Assembly: GCA_000182565.2 (NCBI GenBank)
Contig: KQ257465.1
Length of the DNA stretch: 64,000 nt
Strand: one strand, 5' to 3'
Source of the DNA: Spizellomyces punctatus DAOM BR117
Taxonomy: Eukaryota
How positions within the stretch are numbered: position 1 is the first letter of the stretch; every line of letters begins with the position of its first letter. The notes beneath the pieces are model-generated. The model did no database searches. It saw only the letters and a list, made by a program, of their open reading frames with translations, and had not been told where the DNA came from. Both the position numbers and the translations under genes were made by a program. Shown piece after piece: positions 13,723-44,889 of this stretch.

Positions 13723-13755
13723 TAGTGCGGAGCCGATTGGTATTGGCACTAGTAC
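13723..13755 (+). repeat. Fanzor element left TIR
   Basis: TAGTGCGGAGCCGATTGGTATTGGCACTAGTAC matches the reverse complement of 44837-44869 at 31/33 positions. Confidence 0.95.
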
Positions 13756-13886
13756 ATAGATTCCAACCAATTTAATCATAATTTTACTCGATTTAGACTC
13801 ATGAACTATGGTTTGATCCAAAAAATCCTATATAAGTTGTCGTCGCCCATTTTCCCAGGCTTTCATCTTTTCCCACAGATATCATC

Positions 13887-14548
13887 ATGCCGCCAAAGAA
13901 AAAGCAAAAGCTTGAAAAACTCGACAAACCCACCTTACATACCTGCAACAAGACTTCCTTTGCAAAAGCTTTCCTGCCAAACTATCGCCAACGGCTTCTA
14001 GATTACATCGCCATCATCCATCAACTCGCCGACCACGCTTCCCATGCTCTCAAATTCTACATCCTATCTGCACCAACCTTCACCGTGAATGAGGAGACCA
14101 TCGAAGCGATTCTCTATCTTCTCAACAAGGGGGAGGCTTGGCATCCAAGAAAGGAAGCAAAGAAGGCATGGCGGGATTGTTTGCTGCCATATGTTCAACG
14201 CTACTGCCACATCGTCAGCTTCGTTCATCCAAATCTACAAAAAGAGCAGCAGTCAATCAATTACCTGACAGCGAGTATGATGACGAACCTGAAAGTCAAC
14301 GTTCAAGAGCATTTCATGCAGATGCTCCTTCGGTACATTAATCTGCAGCTCGATGTGAAGGGACAGAAGCAGCGACTGAAAAGCGATGCGCGAAACGCTT
14401 TCTTTGCTCGTCTTCGCTACTTGAAGTCAATTTTCCTTTTTGATATCGTGCCCGAGTCGCTCGATGACTTGACTGCTGAAGAGAGTGAACTTCTAGAAGA
14501 GATTTGGTCGCTCGATCTGCCTTTTCTTATTGACCATCCACTCGCCTA
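13887..14548 (+). pseudogene. Fanzor1 nuclease, fragment 1 (NLS and N-terminal region)
   Basis: MPPKKKQKL..KPTLHTCNKTSFAKAFLPN..HPLAY closely resembles the SpuFz1 N-terminus as recalled; interrupted by an LTR at 14549. Confidence 0.92.
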
Positions 14549-15148
14549 TGTAACGACGAGGACGTCTTCGAGAGATCGCGAGTAAGCCCAAATCGGACGC
14601 GGGAAGCACGAATCGCGTGACCAACTCCACCGATTGGGTTACCGCGACCGAAAAAACCGGTTCGGAGAATGGCAATTGGCGCATTAGATTTCAGCGTGCC
14701 TCGTACAACCTGTGGAGGCCCGAGCCAGTGCGGAAAAGGAAGAGATCGGTACCGCCACCAATAAATCAGTTGCGGTGCAGCGACACCCATTAGTTTAGTT
14801 TAGTTTAACAGTTTATCCAAGAATCTTGTATAAAAAGGATGTATTCAATAAAATAAGTCGGGGGCAGAAGCCGTAGCGACAAAAAATCCCCATAACTCGC
14901 TTCTCAACTCCAATCTTAGGTTAACAGGAACCTAACAGAGCGCTTCAACGGCCTGATCACCCGTACCGAAGCCTCTAAATCCTGCTCGGTTCACAACTAA
15001 CCGACTCTCCTTGCCTCTCGCCCTCAAGTCGCTACCGACGCCCAAAGAAAGGATTTGGAGACTACGATTCCTAGTACGGACACCCACACAACCTGCTAGG
15101 AGACCCAAGTTGTCTTTACTGTAGTCTACCAACAAAAAATCCGTTACA
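14549..15148 (+). repeat. 5' LTR (600 bp)
   Basis: Starts TGTAACG and ends CGTTACA (7-bp inverted termini), directly followed by a TGG primer-binding site; contains TATAAA and AATAAA motifs. Confidence 0.88.
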
Positions 15149-15162
15149 TGGTGGAGAAGCGC
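15149..15162 (+). promoter_or_regulatory. Primer-binding site, probably tRNA-Ala
   Basis: TGGTGGAGAAGCGC abuts the LTR and is complementary to a ..CTCCACCA tRNA 3' end. Confidence 0.7.
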
Positions 15163-15303
15163 GACGAACCGCCTTCCCCTCTCAAATTCAGCTGAAAACC
15201 TTATTCGGTCGTACCGAAACTCTTGCGCAAACCGAGATCCGCTCAGGTAGCTACTCGGAAACCTTTTCTCTCGTTTCGGAGACAGAACTTCACGAAACCG
15301 AGA

Positions 15304-18300
15304 ATGATGCCGGTCGAACGCTCACCAACGCGAGGCCGCTCACCTGTGATCCAGACTCGTAGTCAGGGTCCTGCGGAGGACGTCGAAGTCCCTCCCGCAA
15401 CACGCCCAAGGCGTTCAGGGACCACTTCCGTCGAACCGGAAGCCCCTAACTTGGCCACGATGGCCTCTGAAGTGGCAGCGTTAAAAGAAGACATTGCCCG
15501 CTCGACTGCTGCAACGCAGTTGGCAACTCAAAACCTTACGGAACAGCTTCATAGGCTTTCCGAACGTCAGACAGCGGCGGATGAGCGCCTCGCACGAGCC
15601 TTAGAAGCCCTAGCGCATCGCCCGCTGCCTGAACAACCTCCCATAGCACGAGCTACAAGAGAACGGTCCGCAACCCCGTGGGAAACGGCGGACACACCAA
15701 GGGAGCGTACCGAACCAAGTTTTTCAGGTGCGGTGCCTCCAATCCAAGTGCCAGCGGCCCCGTGGGCCAGCGACACCAAGGTCGATTCCTTGAAAGCAAA
15801 GGACGTACCCGAGTTTACGGGCAGAAGAAACCAAGACGTTGAAGAATGGCTTAACAAAGTCCAACTTCTTCAAAACGTTAGCGCAACGTCGGATGCCAGG
15901 ATGGTACAGCTCCTACCAGCCATGATAGCCGAGAAAACCCCTGCTGACGCTTGGTTTTACACTCTGGAAGCCCAGGAAACTCGCTCATGGACCTGGAAAA
16001 GGTGGAAAGAGGAACTGCTTCGAGAGTTCCGAGATCCCCTAACCGAGTCCAAGCGCAAAACCGAATATGTGCGCTGCCATGCGAACCCCAAAGAATTTCG
16101 CAGCTTTCTCGCGTTCATCGACCACAAAACTCATCTCCGGCGCCTCGCTTATGGCGACCGGGCAAACATAGAATGTCCCGCTGACCAGCATTTCGACCTA
16201 ATAGTCGAACAATTGCCCAGCGACATCCAAATCATGGTCAAATCCTGTAACGTCACGAACCTGACCAAATTAAAAGACTTCCTGCGCCTTTATTTCGGCT
16301 CTGATGACACCAGAAAACGAGACCCTTGCTACAGCGGTGCTGCAGAAGCTCAGAAGAAGTCACAAAAGACCGGAACCGACAAAGGCCCTAAGCAGACGGC
16401 TCCGCATAAAACCGGAAACCCCGAAAAGGGTCGCGATGGTCCTCAGAAGATGGTTCCGGACCCCAACAAGGAACCACCGGCACCCTGCAAATTCTGTCAG
16501 AAAAAGCATTGGAATGTTTTCTGCTGGCAGAACCCGAACCGAAAAGATCCTGAAGATGGAAAGAAAGGACCATATGGAGCACCCATGCCCTCAGGTTGGA
16601 AACCCAAACAGGAATCGAAGAAGGCGTACATAGTGGAGCTGGACTCGACGTCCGCTACCACCGAGACTCTTTTTTCGGCTTCGGAACTGGAAAGAACGGA
16701 AGCCGCTAATCAAGGATTCCACACCATCGGGTTCTTTCATTCACCCAAGCACTCGGAATCAACAATTTTGATGACCGCACCTCTTTCCAAGGTCACGGTG
16801 ACCAAGGAAGAGGACCCCCGCACGCCCACGCAGGGCTGGGACCGAGTCTGGGACAACATAGCCATCATCTGGGGCACCCCGCAAGTGGCTCTGATGATGG
16901 GCAACAACCCCCGCGCGCTCAGCTTCTTCGCCAAAGAACCGAAGCGAGGCGCCGGGCACCTCGGGAACGACCCCTACGCAGTCGCGTGGAGTTCCCACCA
17001 CCTCTACATCGCTGCCGCAGCCGAAGCTGACAAGGATCGAATCCTGCGAAAGGTCCGAGAAGACGGTACCCCTCGTTTGATTCTCCTTGCCTGGATAAAG
17101 CTCGACGAGCGCGAGAAATTCTTGATGTGGAGCTCTGAAGATCCTGTTATCTTTGATGCGTACGCCAACCTGCAACTGGTGGCATTTCTCCTGACAGGCA
17201 ATATCGTTCGCTCAGACTATTATTATCGTCGCGGAAACCCCAAATTTCGGCACGTTAAAGACCATCCACGTCTCCAAAGACACGAAGAGAGCGAACGGAC
17301 GCGTATAGTCATGCTGGCTATCGAACAAGTTGCTCGCCAGAATAAAACAACAAAACCACAAAACGACAAAACTAGAGAACACTTTGAGAGTGTGATCAAG
17401 GCTACGGAAGCAACAATTAACGACATCGCGCCCCATTTCGAGATCGCGGTGCCTTCTATCAACGCCTTCTACTCAGTAGATTTAGGCGATGTACTCAAAA
17501 GCCAGACTAAGACCCAAACGCAGCCTTGCTGGACGCTAGCCGTCATCGCGCAGCTCTGGGCACCTGTGGTACTAGACACAGGGGCCTGCGAGTCTCTGAT
17601 TTCCGACACGTACCAAGGCCTTCTGTTCTCCGAAACCGATTTGCAGGATGCGGAAACGATGGCTTTCAACGGCATTGGTGGACGTATCTCATCTACCAAG
17701 ACAGTATGCCTCGAAACTTCCCTCAGAGGCCGCGGCGGAGAATACCTGACTTTCCGCGCCTACTTTCGGGTCATCGCGTACGGGAAACCTCTCATCATCC
17801 TAGCCAACGACGTTTTGGGACATTTGAAACTCCAAACCTTGGTTCAGGAACCCCCGTTACCCAGTTTCGCGGTGACGCTCAAGAATCCAGACATCCTTAT
17901 CCCCTGCTCCATAACGGATGAGCTGGACACCGATCACATGCGCGGCACGCCATACAAGACCAAGCAGGGTGAATTCATGAAGGATGTGTCAATGCCACGG
18001 CTGACCAAAGCCAAAGCTCAGAAGTCTAGATTAACCATGTTAATCACGGGACAGACGCGCGTGGCAGCCCAAACTTTTCTCATCGAAAACCCTCTTGAGG
18101 CCACCGCTGCTAGCTCAACGGTCCCGTTAGGCCTCAAACTGTCCACCGCGACCCATAATTCGGTTGCGGACCCCGAAGAGAACATTTCCAAAGAAGAATG
18201 GCAGACACTTCGGAACAAATGGAACCTCGACTCTACGGAGAGGGCTCCAGGGGCCTTCGAAGCCCAATTAAAAGACGCGGAACGTTTCCACGTCGATCTC

Positions 18301-19176
18301 AAGCGACCCAAACCCGTGGTCTGGGCCCTAATCAACATTCTACGACACTTCCATCAAGCCTTCAGCTATGAGGGTCATCTCATAGGGAACTACACCAAGA
18401 TTCCTTATGCGCCTCGATTTATCTCGGCTCCGCCACCCCTTTCGAGGCCACGGTCGTACTCTCCGTTGGAGCGGACAGCCCTCGAGACGGAGCGAGACAC
18501 CATGATGGGGCTTCAGAGGTGGAAACGAACCACCGAAGTAACCTTCGCCAGCGATCCTGTTATCATTCGCTATGCAGACAAACCCCCGCGCGTAGCCTTC
18601 GACTATCGCCGAGCCAACGACTGCATGGCCTGGGATCCATATCCCTTTCCCATCATGCTCGACATCCTGAACTGGATCGTCGCAGTCCCATTCCGATACA
18701 TATCGGGAGGTGACGCAAACAAAGGATTCTACCAAATCGCCATCACCGATGCGTCGGTACGCAAATGGCTCGCGCTCAGACTCCATGACGGCATCTACGA
18801 ACCACTCTTTATGCCCTTCGGACCCAAGACTGCCCCCTCGCACTTCTGTCGGGTGATGGACGACACCTTGGGTCCCTCCAAATGGCGAAATATCAACAAC
18901 TTCGTCGACGATATCCACACACGAGTGGAGACAGCCGCGGAAGCCCTAGACGCCATCGCGGACTGGCTCGACCGCTTTTCCAGAGCCAAACTCACCCTAA
19001 GACTCGACAAGTGTCAATGGCTCTTTCACCAGCTCACGGCCCTCGGTTTCGTTGCCTCCTCTCAGGGTCTCGCTACCGATCCAGACAAGGTCGCAACCAT
19101 AGTCGATTGGCCACAACCCAAATTCATAGGTGACCTGAATTTTCCCTGCCTACTGTCGGTTGTCAAGCCTATATGA
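15304..19176 (+). CDS. Gag-protease-RT polyprotein, truncated after the RT core
   Basis: Gag PEFTG..VEEWL, knuckle CKFCQKKHWNVFC, protease VLDTGA, RT motifs RVAFDYR, DANKGFYQ, MPFG, NFVDD, DPDKV. First ATG at 15304; the last ~12 codons come from out-of-frame Fanzor DNA. Confidence 0.9.
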   Translation: MMPVERSPTRGRSPVIQTRSQGPAEDVEVPPATRPRRSGTTSVEPEAPNLATMASEVAALKEDIARSTAATQLATQNLTEQLHRLSERQTAADERLARALEALAHRPLPEQPPIARATRERSATPWETADTPRERTEPSFSGAVPPIQVPAAPWASDTKVDSLKAKDVPEFTGRRNQDVEEWLNKVQLLQNVSATSDARMVQLLPAMIAEKTPADAWFYTLEAQETRSWTWKRWKEELLREFRDPLTESKRKTEYVRCHANPKEFRSFLAFIDHKTHLRRLAYGDRANIECPADQHFDLIVEQLPSDIQIMVKSCNVTNLTKLKDFLRLYFGSDDTRKRDPCYSGAAEAQKKSQKTGTDKGPKQTAPHKTGNPEKGRDGPQKMVPDPNKEPPAPCKFCQKKHWNVFCWQNPNRKDPEDGKKGPYGAPMPSGWKPKQESKKAYIVELDSTSATTETLFSASELERTEAANQGFHTIGFFHSPKHSESTILMTAPLSKVTVTKEEDPRTPTQGWDRVWDNIAIIWGTPQVALMMGNNPRALSFFAKEPKRGAGHLGNDPYAVAWSSHHLYIAAAAEADKDRILRKVREDGTPRLILLAWIKLDEREKFLMWSSEDPVIFDAYANLQLVAFLLTGNIVRSDYYYRRGNPKFRHVKDHPRLQRHEESERTRIVMLAIEQVARQNKTTKPQNDKTREHFESVIKATEATINDIAPHFEIAVPSINAFYSVDLGDVLKSQTKTQTQPCWTLAVIAQLWAPVVLDTGACESLISDTYQGLLFSETDLQDAETMAFNGIGGRISSTKTVCLETSLRGRGGEYLTFRAYFRVIAYGKPLIILANDVLGHLKLQTLVQEPPLPSFAVTLKNPDILIPCSITDELDTDHMRGTPYKTKQGEFMKDVSMPRLTKAKAQKSRLTMLITGQTRVAAQTFLIENPLEATAASSTVPLGLKLSTATHNSVADPEENISKEEWQTLRNKWNLDSTERAPGAFEAQLKDAERFHVDLKRPKPVVWALINILRHFHQAFSYEGHLIGNYTKIPYAPRFISAPPPLSRPRSYSPLERTALETERDTMMGLQRWKRTTEVTFASDPVIIRYADKPPRVAFDYRRANDCMAWDPYPFPIMLDILNWIVAVPFRYISGGDANKGFYQIAITDASVRKWLALRLHDGIYEPLFMPFGPKTAPSHFCRVMDDTLGPSKWRNINNFVDDIHTRVETAAEALDAIADWLDRFSRAKLTLRLDKCQWLFHQLTALGFVASSQGLATDPDKVATIVDWPQPKFIGDLNFPCLLSVVKPI

Positions 19177-19627
19177 AAAGCATGGATTTCGACGGTTCAG
19201 TGCAATCCCTCTTCGTCGGTCGCTGATTCAGTCCCATATTCGCATCGACACGGTCATTCTCTACGCCCACATCCTCTGCATCACCCGCCAAGAAGCACAA
19301 GCCGTAGAGAAGGTCGATTTATGGATGCGCGTCTGCAATCTACGTACCAAGGCTTTTCGGTCTCACCGCGATATGCAGTTTGAAGGCTCGATCACGACGG
19401 ACGGCACCTCGGTGTCAGTTTACTTGAAACATCCTGAAGCTGACAAGTATGGAAAGCACAGCGGCGGAGGGAAGAAGTCAGCAAAGACCCTAGAAGCTGA
19501 GGTGAAGGCAGTATATGTGGAAAACAACTTATCTGCTTGTCAAGAGAACATTGTCGTTATCGATCCAAACAAGCGCGATCTTCTCTACTGCCAAGACAAC
19601 AAGGGCACCATCTTCCGTTACACCGCC
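19140..19627 (+). pseudogene. Fanzor1 nuclease, fragment 2 (includes RuvC-I Asp)
   Basis: FPAYCRLSSLYEKHGFRRFSAIPLRR..ITTDGTSVSV..VVIDPNKRD..FRYTA; ends at the CCGCC TSD. Confidence 0.92.
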
Positions 19628-19675
19628 TGTGGTAGTGCATGCCTGTGGTATATACCACAGGCATGCACTACCACA
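19628..19675. repeat. Perfect 48-bp terminal palindrome (left)
   Basis: TGTGGTAGTGCATGCCTGTGGTAT|ATACCACAGGCATGCACTACCACA. Confidence 0.98.
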
Positions 19676-19695
19676 GTGCCCATAGTCAGCTTCAC

Positions 19696-19855
19696 TGTAC
19701 CAAAACCCATAGTATGGAAGAATGTACCAAAACCCATAGTACGGAAGAATGTACCAAAACCCATAGTACGGAAGAATGTACCAAAACCCATAGTACGGAA
19801 GAATGTACCAAAACCCATAGTACGGAAGAATGTACCAAAACCCATAGTACGGAAG
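19696..19855 (+). repeat. Subterminal 27-bp tandem array, 6 copies (7 in the right TIR, ~43818-44004)
   Basis: Unit TGTACCAAAACCCATAGTACGGAAGAA. Confidence 0.95.
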
Positions 19856-20011
19856 TGTTTGCCCAATGCATTGGAGTGTTTCAAAGTGTTTCGAGTCTTC
19901 CAAGGTGTTTGCCCAATGCATTGGAGTGTTTCAAAGTGTTTCGAGTCTTCCAAGGTGTTTGCCCAATGCATTGGAGTGTTTCAAAGTGTTTCGAGTCGTC
20001 CAAGGTGTTTG
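19855..20011 (+). repeat. Subterminal 50-bp tandem array, ~3 copies (mirrored in the right TIR)
   Basis: Unit GTGTTTGCCCAATGCATTGGAGTGTTTCAAAGTGTTTCGAGTCTTCCAAG, containing the palindrome CCAATGCATTGG. Confidence 0.95.
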
Positions 20012-20174
20012 TCCAAGTCCGGGACTATTGATGAAGGGATGATATGCGGTATAGTGCACTTACATGTCAAATTTTACGCATCTAATATTTCACGTGTCCA
20101 AACTCCACCTAATTCAAAGTCAACACTGGTTCTAACTTGACATTCGCTTCTTCTCAAGACTCCATGATATCACT

Positions 20175-20426
20175 TCATCTTGGGACTCCATCTCTCAGCC
20201 TTCGACATCGTAGCTTGTGGACTCGTCTGTGGACTCGTCTCTCCACATATCTCTTCCAACAAGGATAGCATCGAAACTTGTATCCTTTCTGTCCAATTCT
20301 TCGCAATTGAAACCTCCTTCCACAATCCATGCAGATTTGCTCTAGACTTTGGTGTCCATTGTTCCCTGAAAGCAACCATTCCAATATCCATCTCGGCACC
20401 AGCACACAATCATTCACATAGTCCAT
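20175..20426 (-). CDS. TIR-encoded 83-aa basic zinc-ribbon protein (left copy)
   Basis: CMDC..CYPC motif, Arg-rich tail, ACAATGG start context, upstream TATAAAA. Confidence 0.5.
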   Translation of the reverse strand: MDYVNDCVLVPRWILEWLLSGNNGHQSLEQICMDCGRRFQLRRIGQKGYKFRCYPCWKRYVERRVHRRVHKLRCRRLRDGVPR

Positions 20427-21507
20427 TGTTAATTGTTGTATATGGGAATCGTTTTTGAAAAGAAGGCTTCGAGCTGGGGGGACTGGCGGGACCGGCGACC
20501 CTCTTTTATAAACGGATAAGGAACTCTCCCATCTTATCGATAAGATGGTTCACTAGTCCTCTCATCCTATCGATATAACATGTTCGATCTCTCATCGACA
20601 AAGTGTTGATTTTTTTGCCCTTCATGCATAGTAGAGCATTTGTAAGTGTGCATTTAATTATGTAGAGCAGGATGTAGAGCCGTGCACACTTGCACACTTA
20701 CACACTTCCATTTGGGTTGCTTTAGGGAAAAAGTTACTTAATACTAATATTATTATTAGTATGTCCTCAATTTCTCTCTCAAAGAACCTGAAAACTAAGT
20801 GTGCAAGTGTGCAAGTGTGCATGTAGACCATTCTTCATTGATTTCTTTCCGACTTTCACTAGAGAACAATGGAAGACTAGCTAATCATTTCTGATATTAT
20901 CTACAATCACCTAGTCGCACACTTCCTACACATTTCCATTTCTAAATGTGCAAGTGTGCATTTGTCTAATTCACTTTTGACATCCTCACTGCTATCCGCG
21001 TCCCTCCATGCCTGTGGTGTGATAGGTTTGCTATCTGTACCATCCGCCTGATATAGAAATAGCATGAACTCTTTGCTACTGGGTTTGCTTTAAACTCACT
21101 TTTTACTTCTGAGTTGCGTAGTTGCGTTTGATGGAAGATGGTCGTAGAGGCAGCAAGGAAAGGATCAGTGGAGGGATTCCAAGAGGAGAACTAAAGCGAG
21201 TTCGGATACCATCACGTGATCTAAAATTTGAATGCATTGCGCAAAGTGGCACAGTCAACCTAATGCCAAAGTCTATCGGCTGCACACTATATAATCGAGT
21301 GCCACTTATGTAATGGACCCGTGCATCGCTGCACAAAAAGCTGTGTTGGCATCTGTGTTTCAGATGCATGTGGTTTCTTTTTCGTTTCTTTTTGTGGTCA
21401 GTCCAACGAAAGAAGCCATGAAAAGGAAAGGACTGTATGACCCAATGGGGATACAGTTCTCCATCTGCATCCCCATCTTTTATAGAGAAAAAAAAGGGAA
21501 GCCGCGT

Positions 21508-21822
21508 TCACCCAATTTCCATCCGCATTTCTAGAACAAAGAGCCTTTCATTATGATTGTGTCCTAAGAGAACGCAATCCTGCAAGATGGCCAAGTAGCC
21601 GGAATTTCGAAAGCAGATTTCATCCAGTTTCTTCAAGTGGACGATTGACATTATCTCTTTGAAGATGTGTTCGTTCTGGTCTGTTTTCGGAAGAAACAAT
21701 ATGATACGTTTTTTATCTCCTGTCATCATACCTCGACAGTACCTCCAGAATTTATCCATGTCACCCTTCACAGCGTCCTTGATGTTCAATACTGAATGAC
21801 CTTCAATATCCGCGCGTCGCAT
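21508..21822 (-). CDS. Viral hypothetical protein (104 aa)
   Basis: ATG ORF with A-rich leader, co-oriented just downstream of the fibre gene. Confidence 0.45.
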   Translation of the reverse strand: MRRADIEGHSVLNIKDAVKGDMDKFWRYCRGMMTGDKKRIILFLPKTDQNEHIFKEIMSIVHLKKLDEICFRNSGYLAILQDCVLLGHNHNERLFVLEMRMEIG

Positions 21823-21874: not shown

Positions 21875-24800
21875 TTAAGACCCTAATTCCATTACCTCTA
21901 TAATGGTTACATCTGCGCTTGTGTCCGGTGCTGCATTTACTGCTGAAAAATTGGTAAAATATGCTACATCAGGAACTAACCCCGACACAATGAATGAGGC
22001 ATAAATTGTTCTGTTCACTCCAGCATTATAGTTAAAATCACTGGAAAAGACTGACGGCATCGAACCGGCATTAGTTCCTAGATACACATTGAGTGTTCCT
22101 CCTGCATTATTGGTGCCATGCAAGTTGATGGTATAGCGTATCAACGCCCGGCCGGCTGTAGAAACATAGAACGTCTTTGTTCCGCTACCAGTTGTGATTA
22201 CATCTTTAGTTAGCATTTTGAACACCTGAACCTTTGGAAACTGTACTTGAGATGACACCCAGGCTTGCGTCGCACAGATCTGACCATTCGAGTAAACTGG
22301 CCCATTTGAATACAAGTTGCCTCCTGCAACAACATGTGCACCAACCGCAACTCCTCCATTCACAACCAATGCGCCCGTTGTACTCGATAACACTGGAGTG
22401 GTGCTTTCAACAACGACATTACCTGTGTTAGGATAAATGTAAATACCTTTTGCTCCCTGTGATTGAAGGCGTACGGCACCGACGTCATTCCTGAGCGTGA
22501 GTGTATTAGCGCCTCCATCTACTGTTCGATTTGAGCCATTCATAAAAAGAACGGAAGAACCCGCGGCCGTCGTTAAATAGTAAATTGGTGCTGCATTCGT
22601 TCCTGTGTCTACATTCTTGACCTGAATGCTTCTTAAAGCATTTACACTGGTGTTTCCGATGATGACATCTCTATCAAAATAAGCATTTCCGGTTGCTCCA
22701 TTAAGCGACATACTTCGAATAGATGCGTTGCTTTGTCCGACATAGAAATTCAGGTCTACATTGTTACTACCAGGCAAATAGGATTGTATAGAACATATAT
22801 TTTGCATTGCGTGTGAAAACATGAGGGTATTGGTTTGGCCAACACTATAGTTAGTATTTTGGATGGTCATTTGTGCCCCAGAAACCCATAGTTTCTTAGC
22901 GATTCCAAGCCCTCCTGCAACTTGAAAAGCACCCATCGTTGAGGATGTAGAGTCAGTGGTCGTATTCAACAGGAGAGTACCTGTATTACCTAATACCATC
23001 CATTGGGTGCCGTTGTTCATGGTGCTAAAATATAGTGGGGCCGCACTATTAGTGGTATTATTCAATCCGCTTTGAATGTAATTAGCACCGCTGGTGCTAA
23101 CAAATCACATACAACTAGGAGTTGCACCCGTGTCCATTAGATAATGCGATACACCACCCGACTGGCCTTGCATGATATTTTTTGAAATCCCTACACCTCC
23201 TTTAACCTGTAGAGCACCTGTAGAGACTGTTGTTGCATCGCTTGTATCATTAGCAACAATGGTAGCGACAGACAAGGGTGTAGTCATTGTGATTATATCT
23301 TGTTTCGAAGATAGCGATGTTTGCAATGAAGATATGTCTGACCCGTAATCGACAATGTTCAAAATACTTCGAACTTCAATGTCGTTTTGAAGAATAAGAC
23401 CATTGACATCATCACCCATGACAAACATATTGCTCATCGGTTGCATGGATGCAATGGAATCAAGTAAAGGACTTGCATCTTGCTTACCAGATAGGTCAAC
23501 ACTCGTTACACCCAGAATGTCTCGTACCTCTGCTGGCGTCTTCACAGAAAAGGTAGTTCCATCATTTCCTATGATAAAGGAATTTGTTGATGGAACAAGA
23601 CCACTTAAAGAGGACAACAAAGGACTCGATGGTTGTAATGTGGAAATCGCTGAGGAAACATAACTCTGTGTTGCGACTTGAGCACTATTTGCAAAAATGT
23701 TACCACCGACATAAAGCGCCTTACCAATTCCAACACCACCCTTGACTTGGAATCCCCCTGTTGTTGACGATGTAGAGTCGGTTGTGGTATTCACTACCAC
23801 GGAACCAGAGGACAATATGTCTAAAGTAGATGTGGTATTTGTAGTCCCAAAGCGGAAGTTCGTACCTATAGTCCGCATACATACATCATTGGCCAAATCA
23901 TTGAAAAACATTTGACCATTGGTTGATGGACTGAACGAAACAAAGTCTCCGGCATTTGTCCCTGTACCCCATCTGAAACCTAGTCCTGTACCTTTACCAC
24001 TGTATACCGAACTTCCAACATAAAGATTTTTAGAGACCCCGACTCCACCTGCAACCTGTAATGTGCCTGTAGCCGTTGACGAGGAGTCAGAAGTACATGT
24101 AACTTGGGTTATTCCGGTGTTGGAAATTTTGAAGACATAGCCGATGTTGTTATAACTGCAATTCAATCCGAAGCCCCCTGCGGCTAATACTCCATCCGGC
24201 GAAGCCCCTGCTACGCGAAGCCCCCATGTCACATTCGATGCCGAATTGACCAGCGACATGAATGTTGGCGAAGATCCATTTTGAACACTCAAATAACCAT
24301 TTGCAGTAACAGAAGCAAGACTCAGATTAGTTGATGTAGTGATGTTGTTCTGTTTCCCAGAAAGCAGTGTGTTCACACCAGCATTTGTAGCAATATCGAG
24401 GATGCCTTTTACTTGAGTCGAAGTGACATTATCCAAAGTTGTTCCCGTTGAGGAATACAACCAAGAGTCAGGCTGCACCGTCATCATGTACAGGCTATTA
24501 GTTGTAGCGTTCATAGGCTGCTTCGATGCGAGTGCAGTAGTGACGGCATTGTTGTTGTTATTAACTGTGGTTGTCAATGAAGACAAGGTTTGACTTATTG
24601 GAGCGGTGTTATCAATTACAAATTTCTGAGTTGCAACTTCAATACCTCCGATGTAAGCCATTCCACCAATATATGCATCAGTTGATACTCCTAGCCCGCC
24701 GCTCATAACAACATTCCCTGTGGGGTCCACTCGAAAAACATATCCCTTATCTTGGAAAGAAGAGTATAGGCCGAGAACTCCAGAAGGTAGGTTTCCATTT

Positions 24801-35987: not shown

Positions 35988-36509
35988 ATGCCAGAACATG
36001 TTGTCTTTGATGCCAAATCATCTATTGTAGATAAGATTTTTCCTCTAGTCGAACAACTGTACCGGATTCTTGCCAATGCTTCTGGGAAATCACCCACACC
36101 ACCACCTGATGGTAAGACGATCAATATAATGTTAGCGGAAGACGAACCCGTTTTAAGATCAATGTTTATGAGGTTCTGGAAGAGAGAATCTAATGTTACA
36201 GTATTCACAGCGTCTGATGGTATTGAGGCCGTTGAACTCTTTAAAAAGCAACGATTGAATATCATTTTTGTTGATATCGACATGCCTTACAAAAATGGAG
36301 TGGAAGTAACACGTGAAATAAGACAGTATGAGAGGGACCACAATCTAGATCAAACGCCTATAATAGGAGTGTCTGGATTCACGGAGCGTCAGTACGAGGA
36401 ACAGGCCTTTGCTGCCGGTATGAACAAATTTGTATCAAAAGGAACAGGGTATCAATTGAAAGATATTTACAGAATCGTTGTAGAATACTGTGGAGATCCA
36501 AAGACCTAA
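35988..36509 (+). CDS. Stand-alone response-regulator receiver (REC) domain protein
   Basis: IMLAEDE, FVDIDMP..NG, PIIGVS, AGMNKFVSK; intronless, inside the virus. Confidence 0.92.
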   Translation: MPEHVVFDAKSSIVDKIFPLVEQLYRILANASGKSPTPPPDGKTINIMLAEDEPVLRSMFMRFWKRESNVTVFTASDGIEAVELFKKQRLNIIFVDIDMPYKNGVEVTREIRQYERDHNLDQTPIIGVSGFTERQYEEQAFAAGMNKFVSKGTGYQLKDIYRIVVEYCGDPKT

Positions 36510-36611: not shown

Positions 36612-38636
36612 TTATAGCTTCTTCCCATCCTCCGTCAAAGTAAGCCCCTCCCATAGCGTAGTCGGATTGTCTGTCGTCTTTCCATCGAGGCTATCTACTT
36701 GCTTCAGACGCTGTTTCACAACTTGAAATGAATCCTTGTGATGCTTAAGAAGATAGTCACCTATGTCCTCCTTCCGAGGGTAAGGATTTTCTCCGTATTT
36801 TTTCTCTTGCTTCACCCACGCTTCGTATGCTCTGCGAAAACTATCGGGGTACATCCGCCTTCCCGTCTCCCACTTTACGTACTTTGCCACAAAGCGTCCC
36901 AGAGGATCGAGCTGAGAAGTAAACTCGTTTGTCTTTTCGCTCACTTCATCAGGAACCGGCTGAAGCGATCGTTCTCCGGTTCGGATTTCGACCAGACGAC
37001 GGATGAGGAAACTCATAAACACATCCTTGTATTCTACTATACGTTTCTCCAGTTCCTGTATCCCGACAAACTTCTTTGCATCTTTGCCACCTTTCTTGTT
37101 AGCTTCCTCCTCTGTTCTGCAAAACTCGGACAACATGGGAAACACTTCGAATCGACGAGTGACACCATGAGCGTGGTCGTAGACAATCGGTAACCAGTTC
37201 ATGGCACCCAGAAGAAGAGCGTTCATTTTGAAGGCACCAGTGGTGGTGTCATTAACTTGTCGGGCATTAACCCAGCCATTGATCAGCTTCTTAAATGTGT
37301 CCCCTCGCCATTGCTCATTCTTATTCACTTCGTCCACGCATACGGTAAACTTCCCATCACATCCCTTCAGCTCGCAGTTAGGCCTCGTACTATCAATGTT
37401 CTTACCGAGTTGGCTACTCTGCATGCTGTGCGCTTTCACACTAAAAGTTGCCATTATCAAGTCGATAATGACCGTTTTCCCATTTGCCCCCTCCCCCAAC
37501 AAAATGACCATTTTCTGTGGTTGATTTGCGTCCAGAGTCATACACAAATGATCAAAGAGGTACTCGCGAACCTTCTCAGAGGTGACCATGGTAGAGAAGC
37601 GAGCCATAAGGTAATCGAACCGTTCTTCATTCAGCTCCGACCACCCCTCCCCTTTCACATACTGCTCATCCAGAGCATAACCGAGGTAATCTCTCGTATC
37701 AACACAGTAGTCCGTTTGCTGCCCTGGACGTAGCTTTAACATTTCAAAATCAAAGACACCATTGTCAAAACACAAAATACGCTTCTTTTCTTTCACATGG
37801 TTCAAAAAATCCTCGATGTGTAACTTCGTCTTCATGCTTTGTACAACATTTCTAGAGCTCTTTTTGACAATCATTGTAAAGGCTTCGTCCTCGTCCTCGT
37901 TGAAATAATGCTCCATTGTCACTTGGAAGAGCTCCTCTGCAATCCGGCTAAATTGTTCATCGGTAATAGTTTGATAGCTGTGTACAGCTTTGTTGAATCG
38001 ATACCATTTTCCATGGGTTTTCGACCCGGCATGCACAAACTCTCCCCACCACTGCCTCTCTGCAAAATCAACGATGCACAATTTGAAATTTTGTTCCCAC
38101 TTCTTGTGCCTGTTATTAAAGATCTCGCGACATTTATTTCCAATCTTTCCGGCAGCTTCCTGTAGAGACTCGGGAGGGGTTGTCCTGGGAACATAGGGGA
38201 TGTTGCCTTTGACCATGTTAGGTGCCTGGTTCTCGGGTGCCTTGAGTGTGCTTTCATTAGCTGCTTTGTTCTCCTCGGGTACCTTGAGTGTGGTATCATT
38301 AGCTGCTTTGTTCTCCTCGGGTGCCTTGAGTGTGCTTTCATTAGCTGCTTCGTTCTCCTCGGGTGCTTTGAGGTTGTCCTGCTTGTCATCGCCGCCGAAC
38401 GTGCTTGAACCATATGTTTCGAGATCGAAATCGAGATTCCCAATATCCTCGAGATTCTCAAAACCTAAAATGGGACTTGCTTTTATTTCTGGCTGTGTCT
38501 CGCGTCTTACATGCTTATCTTGTCGCACCCTCTTAGTTTGACGGGAATCGTCCTCATCAGGATCTCTCCTCCTAGTCGACCCTGAACCACGTGTTTTAGA
38601 TGTGTCTGTACTCATGGCGTTCGTTAGTTGTAGCAT
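36612..38636 (-). CDS. D5-like superfamily 3 helicase (no evident primase domain)
   Basis: ILCFDNGVFDF, Walker A GEGANGKT, Walker B VCVDE, Arg finger TRRF; disordered N-terminus. Confidence 0.9.
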   Translation of the reverse strand: MLQLTNAMSTDTSKTRGSGSTRRRDPDEDDSRQTKRVRQDKHVRRETQPEIKASPILGFENLEDIGNLDFDLETYGSSTFGGDDKQDNLKAPEENEAANESTLKAPEENKAANDTTLKVPEENKAANESTLKAPENQAPNMVKGNIPYVPRTTPPESLQEAAGKIGNKCREIFNNRHKKWEQNFKLCIVDFAERQWWGEFVHAGSKTHGKWYRFNKAVHSYQTITDEQFSRIAEELFQVTMEHYFNEDEDEAFTMIVKKSSRNVVQSMKTKLHIEDFLNHVKEKKRILCFDNGVFDFEMLKLRPGQQTDYCVDTRDYLGYALDEQYVKGEGWSELNEERFDYLMARFSTMVTSEKVREYLFDHLCMTLDANQPQKMVILLGEGANGKTVIIDLIMATFSVKAHSMQSSQLGKNIDSTRPNCELKGCDGKFTVCVDEVNKNEQWRGDTFKKLINGWVNARQVNDTTTGAFKMNALLLGAMNWLPIVYDHAHGVTRRFEVFPMLSEFCRTEEEANKKGGKDAKKFVGIQELEKRIVEYKDVFMSFLIRRLVEIRTGERSLQPVPDEVSEKTNEFTSQLDPLGRFVAKYVKWETGRRMYPDSFRRAYEAWVKQEKKYGENPYPRKEDIGDYLLKHHKDSFQVVKQRLKQVDSLDGKTTDNPTTLWEGLTLTEDGKKL
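38234..38372 (-). repeat. 42-bp coding tandem repeat (~3.3 copies of LKAPEENxAANxxT)
   Basis: Visible in both DNA and translation of the helicase N-terminus. Confidence 0.9.
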
Positions 38637-38888: not shown

Positions 38889-39400
38889 GGTTACCATCTA
38901 CATAAACGCTCGCACCTCTGTCGGTTACCATCTACATGAATGCTCGCACCTCTGTCGGTTACCATCTACATGAATGCTCGCACCTCTGTCAGTTACCATC
39001 TACATGAATGCTCGCACCTCTGTCAGTTACCATCTACATGAATGCTTGCACCTCTGTCGGTTACCATCTACATGAATGCTCGCACCTCTGTCGGTTACCA
39101 TCTACATGAATGCTCGCACCTCTGTCAGTTACCATCTACATGCGGTGCTAAGCCTGCATTGTAGATAGCTTTGAGCTGGAGTGCATGCCTTATGTAGATG
39201 TTAACCGATGGAGGTGCAAGCATGCATGTAGATGGGTTTGAGCTGGAGTGCATGCCTTATGTAGATGTTAACGATGGAGGTGCAAGCATGCATGTAGATG
39301 GGTTTGAGCTGGAGTGCATGATCTTATGTAGATGTTAACCGATGGAGGTGCAAGCATGCATGTAGCTGGAGTGCATGCCTTATGTAGGGTTTTGAGCTGG
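38889..39400. repeat. Inverted iteron-like arrays: ~8 x 34 bp facing ~3.5 x 67 bp
   Basis: Unit GGTTACCATCTACATGAATGCTCGCACCTCTGTC (38889-39142). The second array contains ATGTAGATGTTAACCGATGGAGGTGCAAGCATGC, a diverged reverse complement of it. Confidence 0.9.
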
Positions 39401-39712: not shown

Positions 39713-39714
39713 TG

Positions 39715-40233: not shown

Positions 40234-42708
40234 ATGGAATCTCCGTCTAGAGTCTGCAAAAATTTAAAACGCTCTGCCCCCGTGAAGCATGTGGCGGGTG
40301 CAGAAATGAGGCTTACACCTAAAAAGCAAAAAAAAACGGATAATAAAGCGCGCCCAACTGTGGAAGATAACACCCTCAAGGTTGACCTTGACGCTGAGGA
40401 AGATTTCATCACAAAGACTGAACAGGTACATCTTGGCCATCTCAAAAAGTTAGTCAGAATCCAAAAACTCTTCGTTCCGAGTAGCGTTGAAGACTGCAAA
40501 GACAAGGACTACTCAGTGCTGTTAAAATCATACTACAGTAAGGTAGACAAGAATGGCAACTTGTCCGTGACATACCGATTCAAGAACAATGGTCAGTTTG
40601 GACGGCTGTTTGCTAAAGGGATGGCATCCCCATATTTTCCATCTACTGTAAGGGACTTTTTGTTTCCAGATTACATCAATGTTGACATGAGGGCTGCAGT
40701 CTTCACAATCTACCGTCACTACAGCGAGCGCTACAACATCCCCAGTCCTGAACTCTTGCAGTTATTAGAAAAGAGGGATGAGATCTTGCAGAAGAAACAA
40801 CTCACCAAAAAGAAGTTGAACGCTCTCATGAATACAATGACCCCACCTAAGCGTGATAAGTTCCTCATCAATCTTCACGGTTGGATACACAGCAAGTTGC
40901 TGCCTAAACTCAAGGTAGACCCAGAGTACAAGAACTTGTGGATTGCGATCGACAAATCACCGGACGCTGACCCTGTGACTGGGAAGAAGAAGAACAAGGA
41001 TGTGAGTTTCCTTTGCCTGTGCTATCAGACCATAGAACGGCACATCCTTATACACATGTCAGAGTTTTTTGAGAACCGTGGCTGGACGGTTGGCGCTCTG
41101 ATTTACGATGGACTCCTCGTGCAAAAGGATAAAGACAAGATTCTCAATGATGCATTGCTCCGTGAATGTGAGGAGTCGATTTACAACCGCCTCAAGATAC
41201 GGGTCACACTTGCCGAGAAACCCAGGGATATTGATGAAACCTTTCTCAAGAGAAACCATCTCGACCTTGAGGATGTGGACCCGGATAATGATCTTGACGA
41301 CACTGATCTCGATACTGATCTTGACAACCGTGATGTGGTGGATCTGGTGCCAGATGATGAACCCTTGAGCCTCGCAAAATCTGCTAAAATTTTTGGCAAA
41401 GGTACCAATCTGAAAGGTCTGATTCGTTATCTAAACAACTTCTTCACTAAAATAACAGAAGAAGATACTGCATTATACTGCTATCGAGAGAAGCGCAGTG
41501 ATCCTTGGATCTGTCGAACATATAAAAACACCTCGAGCGCTTTATCCCATCTGTTTTTACACTCCATTGATAAAAACGGCAAAGGAGTGATAATTTCCCT
41601 CTTCGACCAGTGGGCAGGCAGCCAAAGAATTATCACATACAAAAAAGTGGTATTCGATCCATCCTACATCGGTGACATACCATTCAAAGAAATCAACCTC
41701 TTCAAGGGCTTCCAGGCAACACTCTTAGATCAGTATGACGAAAAGATAATCGAACCAGTACTTTCCCACATTCGCCAAGTTCTTAACGGCAGTGTTGAGG
41801 AATGTTGGCAATACACAGAAAAGTGGATGGCATCAATTGTGCAGCATCCTCAGATCAAAACCGAAGTGGCCCTTGTCTTCCACGGCTCTCAGGGAACAGG
41901 GAAGAACTTGTTGATGGACAATTTTTTCGGTAGGCTTGTGATCGGTATGAAGCACTTTCTGAACACGAACAATCTCGATGATCTTACCGGTCAATTCACT
42001 GGCCATCTCTCCGCAAAGATTTTCACGATTGGAGATGAAGTTCTGTTTGCCGGTGGTCACAAAACTAACAACATATTGAAATCACGCATCACGCAGAATG
42101 TGCAAAAGATGGAAAAGAAGGGAGTTGATGCAATTACCATTGGCGACTTTAACAACTACAGTTTTCTGTCTAATCACGATGATGCTGTGAAGATCGAAAA
42201 CACCGACCGTAGGTATTTTGTGAAACGTGCTTCAGACATTCATAAAGGAGACACAGAATACTTTGCAACATTTGCGGAAAAGTGTCTGAATCAAGAGACA
42301 GCGGATCACTTTTACACCTATCTGATGCAGATGGATCTCACTGGTTTCAACCTTTGTAAAATACCTGTTACTGAGGAGAAAGCAGAGATGGCCATCTACT
42401 CGATGGACCCACTAGAACTCTTTGTGGATGATCTACTCAACGGCAACATCAGCAAAGGTTTCACGTATGTAGATGGTGAAAGAACACAGGAATGGATGTT
42501 GCCAGGTGAAACATACGAGATGACCATGGATGAGTTGTTTTCACTGTACCAAACATTTCTACAATCTGGCGCAGCCGGTAGGAGATTAGTAGATATGTCT
42601 AAAATGGGATTTAGCAAGAAGATCAGGCGGATGGTACAGATAGCAAACCTATCACACCACAGGCATGGAGGGACGCGGATAGCAGTGAGGATGTCAAAAG
42701 TGAATTAG
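40234..42708 (+). CDS. PolA-derived primase-polymerase (TVpol-like) fused to an SF3/D5-like helicase
   Basis: FGRLF..VRDFL..INVDMRAA (motif A), YQTIER, LIYDGLLV (motif C); C-terminal GSQGTGKN, IGDE, DRRY. Confidence 0.8.
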   Translation: MESPSRVCKNLKRSAPVKHVAGAEMRLTPKKQKKTDNKARPTVEDNTLKVDLDAEEDFITKTEQVHLGHLKKLVRIQKLFVPSSVEDCKDKDYSVLLKSYYSKVDKNGNLSVTYRFKNNGQFGRLFAKGMASPYFPSTVRDFLFPDYINVDMRAAVFTIYRHYSERYNIPSPELLQLLEKRDEILQKKQLTKKKLNALMNTMTPPKRDKFLINLHGWIHSKLLPKLKVDPEYKNLWIAIDKSPDADPVTGKKKNKDVSFLCLCYQTIERHILIHMSEFFENRGWTVGALIYDGLLVQKDKDKILNDALLRECEESIYNRLKIRVTLAEKPRDIDETFLKRNHLDLEDVDPDNDLDDTDLDTDLDNRDVVDLVPDDEPLSLAKSAKIFGKGTNLKGLIRYLNNFFTKITEEDTALYCYREKRSDPWICRTYKNTSSALSHLFLHSIDKNGKGVIISLFDQWAGSQRIITYKKVVFDPSYIGDIPFKEINLFKGFQATLLDQYDEKIIEPVLSHIRQVLNGSVEECWQYTEKWMASIVQHPQIKTEVALVFHGSQGTGKNLLMDNFFGRLVIGMKHFLNTNNLDDLTGQFTGHLSAKIFTIGDEVLFAGGHKTNNILKSRITQNVQKMEKKGVDAITIGDFNNYSFLSNHDDAVKIENTDRRYFVKRASDIHKGDTEYFATFAEKCLNQETADHFYTYLMQMDLTGFNLCKIPVTEEKAEMAIYSMDPLELFVDDLLNGNISKGFTYVDGERTQEWMLPGETYEMTMDELFSLYQTFLQSGAAGRRLVDMSKMGFSKKIRRMVQIANLSHHRHGGTRIAVRMSKVN

Positions 42709-44072
42709 ACAAATGCACACTTGCACATTTAGAAATGGAAATGTGTAGGAAGTGTGCGACTAGGTGATTGTAGATAATATCAGAAATGATTAGCTAGTCT
42801 TCCATTGTTCTCTAGTGAAAGTCGGAAAGAAATCAATGAAGAATGGTCTACATGCACACTTGCACACTTGCACACTTAGTTTTCAGGTTCTTTGAGAGAG
42901 AAATTGAGGACATACTAATAATAATATTAGTATTAAGTAACTTTTTCCCTAAAGCAACCCAAATGGAAGTGTGTAAGTGTGCAAGTGTGCACGGCTCTAC
43001 ATCCTGCTCTACATAATTAAATGCACACTTACAAATGCTCTACTATGCATGAAGGGCAAAAAAATCAACACTTTGTCGATGAGAGATCGAACATGTTATA
43101 TCGATAGGATGAGAGGACTAGTGAACCATCTTATCGATAAGATGGGAGAGTTCCTTATCCGTTTATAAAAGAGGGTCGCCGGTCCCGCCAGTCCCCCCAG
43201 CTCGAAGCCTTCTTTTCAAAAACGATTCCATATACAACAATTAACAATGGACTATGCGAATGATTGTGTGCTGGTGCCGAGATGGATATTGGAACGGTTG
43301 CTTTCAGGGAACAATGGACACCAAAGTCTAGAGCAAATCTGCATGGATTGTGGAAGGAGGTTTCAATTGCGAAGAATTGGACAGAAAGGATACAAGTTTC
43401 GATGCTATCCTTGTTGGAAGAGATATGTGGAGAGACGAGTCCACAGACGAGTCCACAAGCTACGATGTCGAAGGCTGAGAGATGGAGTCCCAAGATGAAG
43501 TGATATCATGGAGTCTTGAGAAGAAGCGAATGTCAAGTTAGAACCAGTGTTGACTTTGAATTAGGTGGAGTTTGGACACGTGAAATATTAGATGCGTAAA
43601 ATTTGACGTGTAAGTGCACTATACCGCATATCATCCCTTCATCAATAGTCCCGGACTTGGACAAACACCTTGGACGACTCGAAACACTTTGAAACACTCC
43701 AATGCATTGGGCAAACACCTTGGAAGACTCGAAACACTTTGAAACACTCCAATGCATTGGGCAAACACCTTGGAAGACTCGAAACACTTTGAAACACTCC
43801 AATGCATTGGGCAAACACTTCCGTACTATGGGTTTTGGTACATTCTTCCGTACTATGGGTTTTGGTACATTCTTCCGTACTATGGGTTTTGGTACATTCT
43901 TCCGTACTATGGGTTTTGGTACATTCTTCCGTACTATGGGTTTTGGTACATTCTTCCGTACTATGGGTTTTGGTACATTCTTCCGTACTATGGGTTTTGG
44001 TACAGTGAAGCTGACTATGGGCACTGTGGTAGTGCATGCCTGTGGTATATACCACAGGCATGCACTACCACA
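42622..44072 (-). repeat. Right viral TIR (1451 bp), ending in the 48-bp palindrome 44025-44072
   Basis: Mirror of 19628-21052; includes the last ~29 codons of the TVpol-helicase ORF. Confidence 0.95.
43247..43498 (+). CDS. TIR-encoded 83-aa zinc-ribbon protein (right copy)
   Basis: Same as the left copy except Ala/Val4 and Arg/Trp17. Confidence 0.5.
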   Translation: MDYANDCVLVPRWILERLLSGNNGHQSLEQICMDCGRRFQLRRIGQKGYKFRCYPCWKRYVERRVHRRVHKLRCRRLRDGVPR

Positions 44073-44077
44073 CCGCC

Positions 44078-44776
44078 AACCAGCGAGCCGTGGAGACTGG
44101 AAGCCGTCGATTTGCAAAAGAACGGCAGCGGATGAAAGCCGGCGGTATTGACCTCATAGAATCACGTATCCCAAGCCACAAGACGATGAACCTCATAGAC
44201 TTCATGCGTTACCTTCTCGTTCGCCGCACTGATTGGGATCGTCGAAAGGAGTTCTACTCCCACCCTGCTCATACTCGATGGAAATGGCACGCATTCATAA
44301 ACCGTCAGAAGAGCGAATCAGACCTCATATCCAACATGCGCAACAAGTACGGCGACAACTTTACTGTCGTGATGGGTGATTGGAGCGACGCCGGTCGAAC
44401 TGCGAGATTTCAGACCTCATCAAAGACGAAAGGTTGGCGCACCCTCTTCAAGCGCAACAGGATCAACTGCTTCCTTCTCGACGAGTACAAGACCTCATCT
44501 GTCTGCCCTCACTGTTTGGCCTCATCCGCTGACTTCCTTGAAAAAGGCTTCAAAACACGACCTCATTCAAGACCTTGGCGCCGTCGCGAAGGCAAGATTG
44601 AAAAAGTCCATGGATTGCTGGGTTGTACCAACCCTAACTGTCAGCAAGCCTGGACGATGCGCTACTGGAACAGGGACACGCTGAGCACCTGCAACATGCT
44701 GATGATCGTGCAATCAATGTTAGATGGACACGGTAGACCAGAGGTGTTCAGGAGGGGTGTTCCAGTGGTAGCGTAG
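44078..44776 (+). pseudogene. Fanzor1 nuclease, fragment 3 (RuvC-II/III and zinc finger)
   Basis: NQRAVETGSRRF..VMGDWS..LDEYKTSSVCPHC..GCTNPNC..WNRD..GRPEVF; closely resembles the SpuFz1 C-terminus as recalled. Confidence 0.93.
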
Positions 44777-44795
44777 CGTAGACTAGTTAGATTAA

Positions 44796-44889
44796 GGTTT
44801 CCGAACTGGTTGTCGCCGGTTCAATCCCTGGTGCGGGTGCTAGTGCCAATACCCATCGGCTCCGCACTAACTATTATACCAAACTAGTT
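44796..44889 (+). ncRNA. Fanzor omega-RNA: scaffold ~44796-44869 plus flanking guide from 44870
   Basis: Hairpin GAACTGG/CCGGTTC, nested GTGCGG/CCGCAC and GGGT/ACCC pairing; overlaps the right TIR; resembles the SpuFz1 scaffold as recalled. The 3' end is estimated. Confidence 0.85.

Follow-up and report, generated by a model that had tools for sequence, protein, structure and literature searches.

The window, which is the whole 64,000-nt stretch of Spizellomyces punctatus DAOM BR117 analyzed here (contig KQ257465.1, assembly GCA_000182565.2), holds at positions 13723–44869 one copy of Spu-1, the transposon encoding SpuFz1/Fanzor1, inactivated by two insertions; we put the probability of this reading at about 0.93. 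Spu-1 is a nonautonomous transposon of ~2.1 kb of this fungus. The Fanzor (Fz) gene of the window copy is dead, and a full-length protein cannot be produced. An original prediction, made from the letters alone, had presented the locus as a nuclease gene hidden in three pieces. The locus is already known, an ordinary catalogued dead copy of Spu-1/SpuFz1, and only the exact limits and gene content of the integrated chytrid double-jelly-roll (DJR) virus that splits the gene are mildly new.

Three collinear pieces of one Fanzor gene

13887–14548, + strand: Fanzor piece 1, SpuFz1 residues 1–233, N-terminus and part of REC
19140–19627, + strand: Fanzor piece 2, SpuFz1 residues ~243–398, WED and RuvC-I with D383 and N385 in VVIDPNKRD
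44073–44776, + strand: Fanzor piece 3, SpuFz1 residues ~398–638, NUC zinc finger and remainder of RuvC, including E541 and D606; stop codon at 44777–44779

The original prediction had placed SpuFz1-like pieces at 13887–14548, 19140–19627, and 44078–44776, and all three were found on the + strand, the third beginning at 44073. The stop-to-stop list of open reading frames (ORFs) gives open frames at 13836–14585, 19139–20140 (Fanzor-like as far as 19627), and 44033–44776, all on the + strand, and internal stops are absent from all three pieces, as had been claimed. The translation of piece 1 starts with MPPKKKQKLEK, a putative nuclear localization signal, that of piece 2 includes NIVVIDPNKRD, and that of piece 3 includes LLDEYKTSSVCPHC, CTNPNC, and YWNRD and ends at the stop at 44777. 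When the pieces were compared by phmmer with all Protein Data Bank (PDB) chains, they matched 8gkh_P, the chain of an MBP-SpuFz1 fusion, at residues 396–626 (E 2.2e-118), 637–798 (E 1.6e-80), and 797–1032 (E 2.9e-140), respectively; they are collinear and non-overlapping on SpuFz1, the protein to which the prediction had proposed that they be aligned. The three-piece match to SpuFz1 is far above chance level, and the Fanzor1 of Parasitella was the second-best PDB match of pieces 2 and 3. Pfam gave nothing above its cut-off for the three pieces, only chance matches; the Fanzor relatives in the protein database carry the precomputed assignment PF26935.1.

A search of the longer proteins of the protein database with piece 3 as the query yielded 34 proteins at E ≤1e-10 from 348 candidates, 15 of which are named as S. 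punctatus DAOM BR117 proteins. The best relative was SPPG_09423 (629 aa), with 95% identity to piece 3; SPPG_07727 (638 aa, 88% identity to piece 3) is SpuFz1, since its D383, N385, E541, and D606 sit at the numbers given by Saito et al. (2023, PMC10432273). The intact copies that the prediction had suggested looking for thus exist as paralogs of 600–638 aa, the nearest being 95% identical to piece 3. Seven of the 34 relatives, the best-scoring ones of at least 600 aa, were aligned (P0005 and P0006, with 493 and 492 aa, were omitted as short), and the three window pieces were added separately. All four RuvC metal-binding residues are retained in this alignment (D383 at 19559–19561, N385, E541 at 44483–44485, and D606 at 44675–44677), as are the four cysteines of the NUC CCCC zinc finger (C548, C551, C586, and C591) and the RNA-contact residues R387, R414, and W570, which bears out the description of a near-complete protein with its RuvC acidic residues and zinc finger. 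SpuFz1 residues 234–242 are missing from the window, besides a few gaps of 1–3 residues that are mostly common to the paralogs.

Counted across every aligned column, amino-acid identity of the window copy is 90.8% to SPPG_09423 and 86.7% to SpuFz1 (SPPG_07727). Among 604 columns that are otherwise invariant, 6 substitutions are private to the window copy, compared with 4–12 in the five annotated S. punctatus paralogs and 34 and 40 in two more distant relatives; because the count falls within the paralog range, the pieces show no extra decay. We attribute their undecayed look to the youth of both insertions.

The Fanzor ORF is nevertheless not a single uninterrupted one, since inserts of 4.6 kb and 24.4 kb split it, and RNA-guided DNA cleavage by this copy is excluded because the ORF is broken. 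A full-length product is precluded because the frame of piece 1 continues into the long terminal repeat (LTR) of the first insert and stops 12 codons into it (stop codon at 14583–14585), and because pieces 2 and 3 are without a promoter or start of their own, barring a chance ATG in the terminus of the second insert.

The Spu-1 frame and its omegaRNA

13723–13755, + strand: left inverted repeat of Spu-1, starting with TAGTGCGG, whose first TA is possibly the target duplication
44837–44869, − strand: right inverted repeat of Spu-1, from within-window blastn and sequence
44795–44884, + strand: omegaRNA, with a 75-nt scaffold (44795–44869) and a would-be 15-nt guide (44870–44884)

In a blastn comparison of the flanks within the window, positions 13723–13755 paired in inverted orientation with 44869–44837, with 31 of the 33 positions identical. 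TA stands at both ends, and the loose ends of paralog contigs and RNA reads start before 13721/13722. Without its inserts the element measures 826 + 488 + 792 = 2,106 bp, to which the 26–27 nt lost are to be added; Bao and Jurka (2013, PMC3627910) described Spu-1 as ~2,100 bp long with a 633-aa ORF, terminal inverted repeats (TIRs) of 33 bp, and presumed TA duplications, present in 17 full-length copies of which 9 have an intact ORF. Other Spu-1 ends or Fanzor copies were not found within the window.

According to Saito et al. (2023), the omegaRNA of SpuFz1 consists of a 75-nt scaffold spanning the right repeat and a 14–15-nt guide, the target-adjacent motif (TAM) is CATA, and a conserved CA lies upstream of the left repeat. 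The window scaffold is intact and folds as two stems and a linker with an 8-nt loop in stem 2 (−30.3 kcal/mol, z −2.25, with 4 of 200 shuffles as good), which is the "canonical" form as defined in that paper. From the stop codon to CCGCACTA its letters are, by eye, identical to those of another Fz locus in the supplement, and the two diverge beyond that point, at the guide. A scan of 44600–45000 against Rfam, which has no family for the Spu-1 omegaRNA, gave only a chance match to CRISPR-DR36 (E 0.47). The region also has a tRNA T-arm-like appearance, an identity that was dropped as the tRNA scan returned 0 genes.

The same paper counts 42 Fz loci (19 full-length) and 134 "ghost" loci in S. punctatus and reports that ghost omegaRNAs lacking an Fz gene are active with SpuFz1. 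The window locus would at most act like these published loci, supplying guide RNA to a Fanzor from intact paralogs: its 90-nt RNA, with 44870–44884 as the guide, would program a paralog although its own protein gene is broken. Such a function is favored by the canonical fold, by the scaffold letters shared with another catalogued locus, and by the published activity of Fz-less ghosts. On the other side, the RNA reads bear on 13700–19680 only, standard RNA-seq loses 90-nt RNAs, TATA rather than a CATA TAM lies upstream of the left end, and a native empty site might escape cutting. We consider a residual role of this kind possible, and hold it tentatively, leaning against it.

Break 1: a truncated LTR retrotransposon

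14549–19139, + strand: 3′-truncated, probably Ty3/gypsy-type LTR retrotransposon, 4,591 nt, with the 5′ LTR and a reverse transcriptase (RT) domain

The first insert begins with a 5′ LTR (14549–15149, TGTAAC...GTTACA) that carries TATA-like and AATAAA motifs at ~14830 and ~14848 and is followed by a primer-binding-like TGGTGG from 15150. Its gag-protease-RT frame of 1,326 codons (15196–19176, the retroelement part reaching 19136) contains a zinc knuckle of the form CX2CX4HX4C, the DTG motif of a protease, and an RT domain that carries FVDD (Pfam RVT_1, E 2.2e-10); the frame ends in the RT-connection region. The assignment to the Ty3/gypsy type is a probable one, made by domain order and by the "Ty3" label in the record of Saito et al. 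The window copy lacks RNase H, integrase, and the 3′ LTR, and no second LTR was found anywhere in the window.

Contigs of three sequencing runs and raw RNA reads of a fourth were placed on 13700–19680; 24 of the 454 contig pieces were listed, and ~6/100 of the RNA run was read. One contig of 6,239 nt begins exactly at 14549, differs by 1 letter in 4,588 up to 19136, and then has unlike letters; because it continues past 19136, full copies of the retroelement are estimated to be ~1.65 kb longer internally. In other copies, the sequence leading up to 14549 closes with AAAGGGGGG, a polypurine tract of the kind that precedes a 3′ LTR. RNA depth is high over 14500–15100, and in 73 RNA reads an A-tail follows 14886; this is a young, transcribed LTR family. 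In the supplement of Saito et al., the same LTR, in opposite orientation, abuts another Fanzor copy at a different codon.

Two contigs of paralogous copies, from runs X2 and X11, independently join 14547/14548 to 19140 via 27 or 26 letters, in frame and like the (Y/F)AVVVDPMSF of the paralogs. The gap at break 1 spans 10 alignment columns, but the Y codon among them survives, which makes the loss 9 codons; the ~8–9 codons that had been predicted to be missing at the retrotransposon junction agree with this count. The retrotransposon evidently integrated after codon 221, with the LTR end exactly at 14549, and a later deletion would have taken its 3′ part (~1.65 kb of internal sequence and the 3′ LTR) together with 26–27 nt (9 codons) of the Fanzor gene, probably in one event.

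Break 2: insertion of a virus-like element

19628–44072, no strand assigned: integrated polinton-like or MELD virus, 24,445 bp, with termini 5′-TGTGG...CCACA-3′
19623–19627 (left) and 44073–44077 (right), no strand assigned: target-site duplication CCGCC, within a shared direct repeat of up to ACACCGCC

The original prediction had rightly seen a retrotransposon at the first break and left the second without an explanation; this one is a 24.4-kb integrated virus-like element. Piece 2 ends with RYTA and piece 3 opens with TANQR, with ACACCGCC on both sides, and the intact paralogs read RYTANQR once. The insert opens with TGTGGTAGTG and closes with CACTACCACA. If the termini are symmetrical the duplication is the 5-bp CCGCC, its maximum length being 8 bp.

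The inverted ends, 19628–21052 and 42622–44072, are ~1.4 kb long, with arms of 239, 782, and 608 nt that match at 97, 98, and 100%. Each terminus is a perfect 48-nt fold-back (19628–19675 and 44025–44072) that ends in 5′-TG...CA-3′ and comprises a 22-bp stem and a TATA loop (−29.4 kcal/mol, z −8.7); tandem repeats of 27 nt and 50 nt follow it in the inverted ends. The 27-nt repeat has 5.9 copies on the left (19696–19855) versus 6.9 on the right (43818–44004), which explains much of the 2–3% difference between the arms. Fold-back termini, together with a tyrosine-recombinase-fold gene near an rve integrase gene in the insert (see below), suggest possible hairpin or self-priming genome ends. Identities as CACTA, hAT, Mutator, or Transib elements, considered from the ends, were dropped in view of the capsid, ATPase, and integrase genes present.

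As its anatomy shows, a 24.4-kb polinton-like DJR virus integrated between D383 of RuvC-I and the remainder of RuvC, duplicating 5 bp. A 5-bp target duplication is as expected for the rve integrase of the insert, and this enzyme was probably responsible for the insertion.

Gene content of the insert

29491–30744, − strand: major capsid protein (double jelly roll), 417 aa, from homology and AlphaFold2/Foldseek
32144–32857, + strand: A32-like genome-packaging ATPase (Pfam Pox_A32, E 7.6e-07, 29.3 bits versus a cut-off of 22.8)
33428–34708, + strand: rve integrase with a C-terminal chromodomain (Pfam rve, E 6.1e-11; Chromo, E 7.3e-11)
34769–35866, − strand: tyrosine-recombinase-fold protein, 365 aa, from conserved residues and AlphaFold2 fold
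36612–38636, − strand: D5/P4-type primase-helicase, 674 aa (Pfam D5_N and DUF5906; TIGR01613 primase_Cterm, E 1.3e-23, under its cut-off)
40234–42708, + strand: second primase-helicase-like protein, 824 aa (Pfam DUF5906, E 1.2e-18; PDB primase 6k9e, E 1.2e-11)
21875–27457, − strand: fibre-like ORFs of 1450 aa and 381 aa in the same frame, with shared QVKGGVGI / TG.FQV.GG.GI.K repeat modules
35988–36509, + strand: stand-alone response-regulator receiver-domain protein (Pfam Response_reg, E 1.2e-20)

Fourteen ORFs of the insert were scanned against Pfam, 5 of them with matches, and 13 against NCBIfam. The insert is an integrated polinton-like virus (PLV) or "MELD" virus (Preplasmiviricota), an assignment that follows from its DJR capsid, A32-type ATPase, inverted repeats, and 5-bp target duplication. 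The capsid ORF has 24 relatives at E ≤0.001, including three S. punctatus proteins at 89–92% identity and "hexon [Powellomyces chytrid fungus MELD virus 5]" at 69%; the others are from Spizellomyces, Powellomyces, Gaertneriomyces, and Phlyctochytrium. From the three S. punctatus proteins, three or more additional copies of the element are predicted. An AlphaFold2 model built from 15 sequences (the window and 14 of the 24 relatives) had a pLDDT (predicted local distance difference test) of 75.5, and Foldseek placed the PBCV-1 capsid protein (Vp54) first (E 5.8e-15, TM score 0.61), followed by Sputnik and PRD1 P3. A scan of IMG/VR with the capsid protein gave 0 matches to six peptide patterns.

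The 365-aa ORF has 27 relatives among 1.84 billion representatives. An alignment of 25 of these (two short ones were omitted) shows an invariant K219 and nearly invariant R181, R325, and H351. Its AlphaFold2 model (pLDDT 89.3) retrieved XerA, XerH, and Cre as the top Foldseek matches, then lambda Int, Tn1549 Int, and the protelomerase TelA, with a best E of 7e-3 and a probability of 1.0, and a profile search of the PDB returned the integrase 3nkh (E 1e-3). PDB searches with the single sequence of this ORF, or of the 381-aa fibre-like ORF, gave nothing meaningful. The neighbors of the 365-aa ORF in the protein atlas are viral (Preplasmiviricota) clusters. The rve integrase at 33428–34708 also matched an IS481-type transposase in NCBIfam (E 1.9e-18, under the curated cut-off).

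The two fibre-like ORFs are separated by a stop at 23105–23107; they represent two genes, or else a single gene split by a nonsense change. They had no family match in Pfam or NCBIfam and no PDB match, and the label "fibre-like" was suggested by their composition and by the description of the Powellomyces MELD viruses. The ORF at 31383–32102 (− strand) is a candidate penton (minor capsid) protein, judged by position and by eye. Capture of the receiver gene from the neighboring host histidine kinase was considered and dropped, the identity to the receiver domain of that kinase being only 25%. ORFs at 21508–21822, 27554–29026, 30788–31336, and 32846–33208 have no assigned family. The 1.6-kb noncoding gap between the divergent primase-helicase genes holds, at 38889–39369, tandem repeats of 34 nt (7.5 copies) and 67 nt (3.3 copies), and this repeat region is a candidate replication origin or promoter region.

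No match to a family B polymerase (PolB) or an adenain-type protease was seen at E ≤0.01 in the 14 ORFs scanned against Pfam, and none in the 13 scanned against NCBIfam, although distant homologs could escape such searches. This result bears on whether the insert might instead be a classical Polinton/Maverick with a protein-primed PolB, or a large cut-and-paste DNA transposon, to which the long inverted ends, the short target duplication, and an rve integrase of the kind common in Polintons would be suited. The insert has two D5/P4-type primase-helicases in place of PolB, no DDE transposase of the cut-and-paste superfamilies was found in it, and the capsid, ATPase, and fibre-like genes point to a virus, so we regard that alternative to PLV/MELD-type virus as very unlikely.

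A bolder proposal is that this PLV/MELD-type insert is a recently integrated and still competent DJR chytrid virus of a type undescribed for this host, not a fossil, and that its perfect 48-nt fold-back termini could allow it to switch between a chromosomal provirus and a linear form of the genome whose ends are hairpins or self-priming. The lack of PolB, the two D5-type primase-helicases, and the combination of an rve-chromodomain integrase with a tyrosine recombinase are the grounds for calling the type undescribed; we consider the proposal as a whole doubtful.

Support for the junctions

Several observations weigh against the reading of the locus as one Spu-1 copy broken by two insertions. 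None of the listed contig pieces bridges 14548/14549, 19139/19140, or 19627/19628 by 31 letters on each side, and for that reason the junctions rest on the assembly, the exact LTR end, and the target duplication. GAA at 19137–19139 fits neither the continuation of the retroelement nor the paralog Fanzor sequence, which leaves the deletion junction partly unexplained. Positions 13721–13724 are TATA; ahead of the left repeat, where a conserved CA is described by Saito et al. (2023), the window has T in place of the C. Most RNA reads on piece 1 have the letters of paralogs (89 of 93 differ from the window at 14045), and the reads cover 13700–19680, short of the omegaRNA region.

The lack of a bridging contig, and the fact that all three components are multicopy in the genome, could also be read as signs that the assembly had joined unrelated repeats. 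Such an artefact is highly improbable: matching inverted ends with the same 5 bp on both sides restore the paralog RYTANQR exactly, the LTR begins precisely where the gene is broken, no repeat that might mislead an assembler is common to retroelement and Fanzor gene at 19136–19140, and the window is without N. That the pieces are exons of a functional gene with 4.6-kb and 24.4-kb introns, as their open frames and collinear order might suggest, can practically be dismissed, since both inserts are complete mobile elements that bring ends, a target duplication, and genes of their own, nine codons of all 7 aligned relatives are missing, the intact paralogs are single ORFs, and the 14547-to-19140 joint occurs in 0 of the RNA reads, ~6/100 of that run having been read.

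Comparison with the published record

The supplement of Saito et al. was searched with five short peptide motifs of the window translations, and three were found, all in file 5. They led to a 33,826-bp "Loci with Fz" record of S. punctatus DAOM BR117 that matches the window locus; adding 12,498 to a record position gives the window position at all four landmarks checked. Its annotations, in record coordinates, include the following.

1225–1254: "end"
1389–2087: CDS SPPG_09480, 232 aa, equal letter for letter to piece 1 including the LTR read-through
1431–2054: "fz", SpuFz1 18–234
2809–6678: "Ty3", between "fz" pieces
6641–7141: "fz", SpuFz1 242–408
31562–32278: CDS SPPG_07598, equal to piece 3 from the chance ATG in the virus terminus

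The locus was therefore not hidden, being annotated there as "fz" and "Ty3". The genes of the 24.4-kb insert are given only as "uncharacterized protein" in this record, and no viral label appears in the parts examined. In 11 Fz loci, the paper also notes, additional genes sit inside the inverted repeats, among them a Ty3 in the Fz gene. In the window, the annotated 232-aa gene at 13887–14585 reads 12 codons into the LTR, and the annotated 238-aa gene at 44060–44779 starts at an ATG within the terminal palindrome of the virus; these two reference gene models are really fragments of a single dead Fanzor gene.

The window copy belongs to the family of Spu-1/SpuFz1 (PMC3627910, PMC10432273, PDB 8gkh) and, by the supplementary record, is of the same genome and locus; with Spu-1/SpuFz1 it shares the 33-bp TA-ended repeats, the PPKKKQK N-terminus, D383/N385/E541/D606, the CCCC finger, and the 75-nt two-stem scaffold; it differs in that its ORF is interrupted twice and is 9 codons short and in having T at the conserved C upstream. 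SpuFz1 has been characterized biochemically and structurally. Reconstructing an active ortholog from the pieces, which the original prediction had thought possible, would be pointless with 19 full-length Fz loci in the genome and SpuFz1 already characterized. For Fanzor biology and genome editing the copy has no importance, SpuFz1 being the best-studied Fanzor and intact copies abounding in the same genome; its value is descriptive, in showing Spu-1 copies being destroyed by two young mobile elements.

Six MELD genomes from a Powellomyces data set, to which the virus of the window is related, code for fibre-like proteins, combined either with PolB or with various replicases other than PolB (Starrett et al. 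2021, PMC8502044). MELD virus 5 supplies the hexon that is the 69% relative of the window capsid; unlike those viruses, the window element sits in a Spizellomyces chromosome as an integrated copy that has inverted ends of 1.4 kb and a target duplication. The S. punctatus PLV of Bellas and Sommaruga (2021, PMC7805220) likewise is integrated in this host and has inverted ends, but it lies on another scaffold and is described with "TIR 154 bp (pPolB)", whereas the window element has 1.4-kb ends and no detectable PolB; because scaffold and TIR length differ, we take the two to be different viruses. A 2026 preprint reports A32 genes of two kinds in chytrid genomes. Studies of fungal polinton-like viruses could make use of this cleanly bounded, apparently intact chytrid DJR virus, for which the exact ends and the target duplication are given.

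Flanking genes

10454–13564, − strand: hybrid histidine-kinase gene, on one flank
45348–47159, + strand: frame of 603 codons with no assignment, on the other flank

The nest of elements sits in the intergenic region between these two, and ordinary host genes lie further out.

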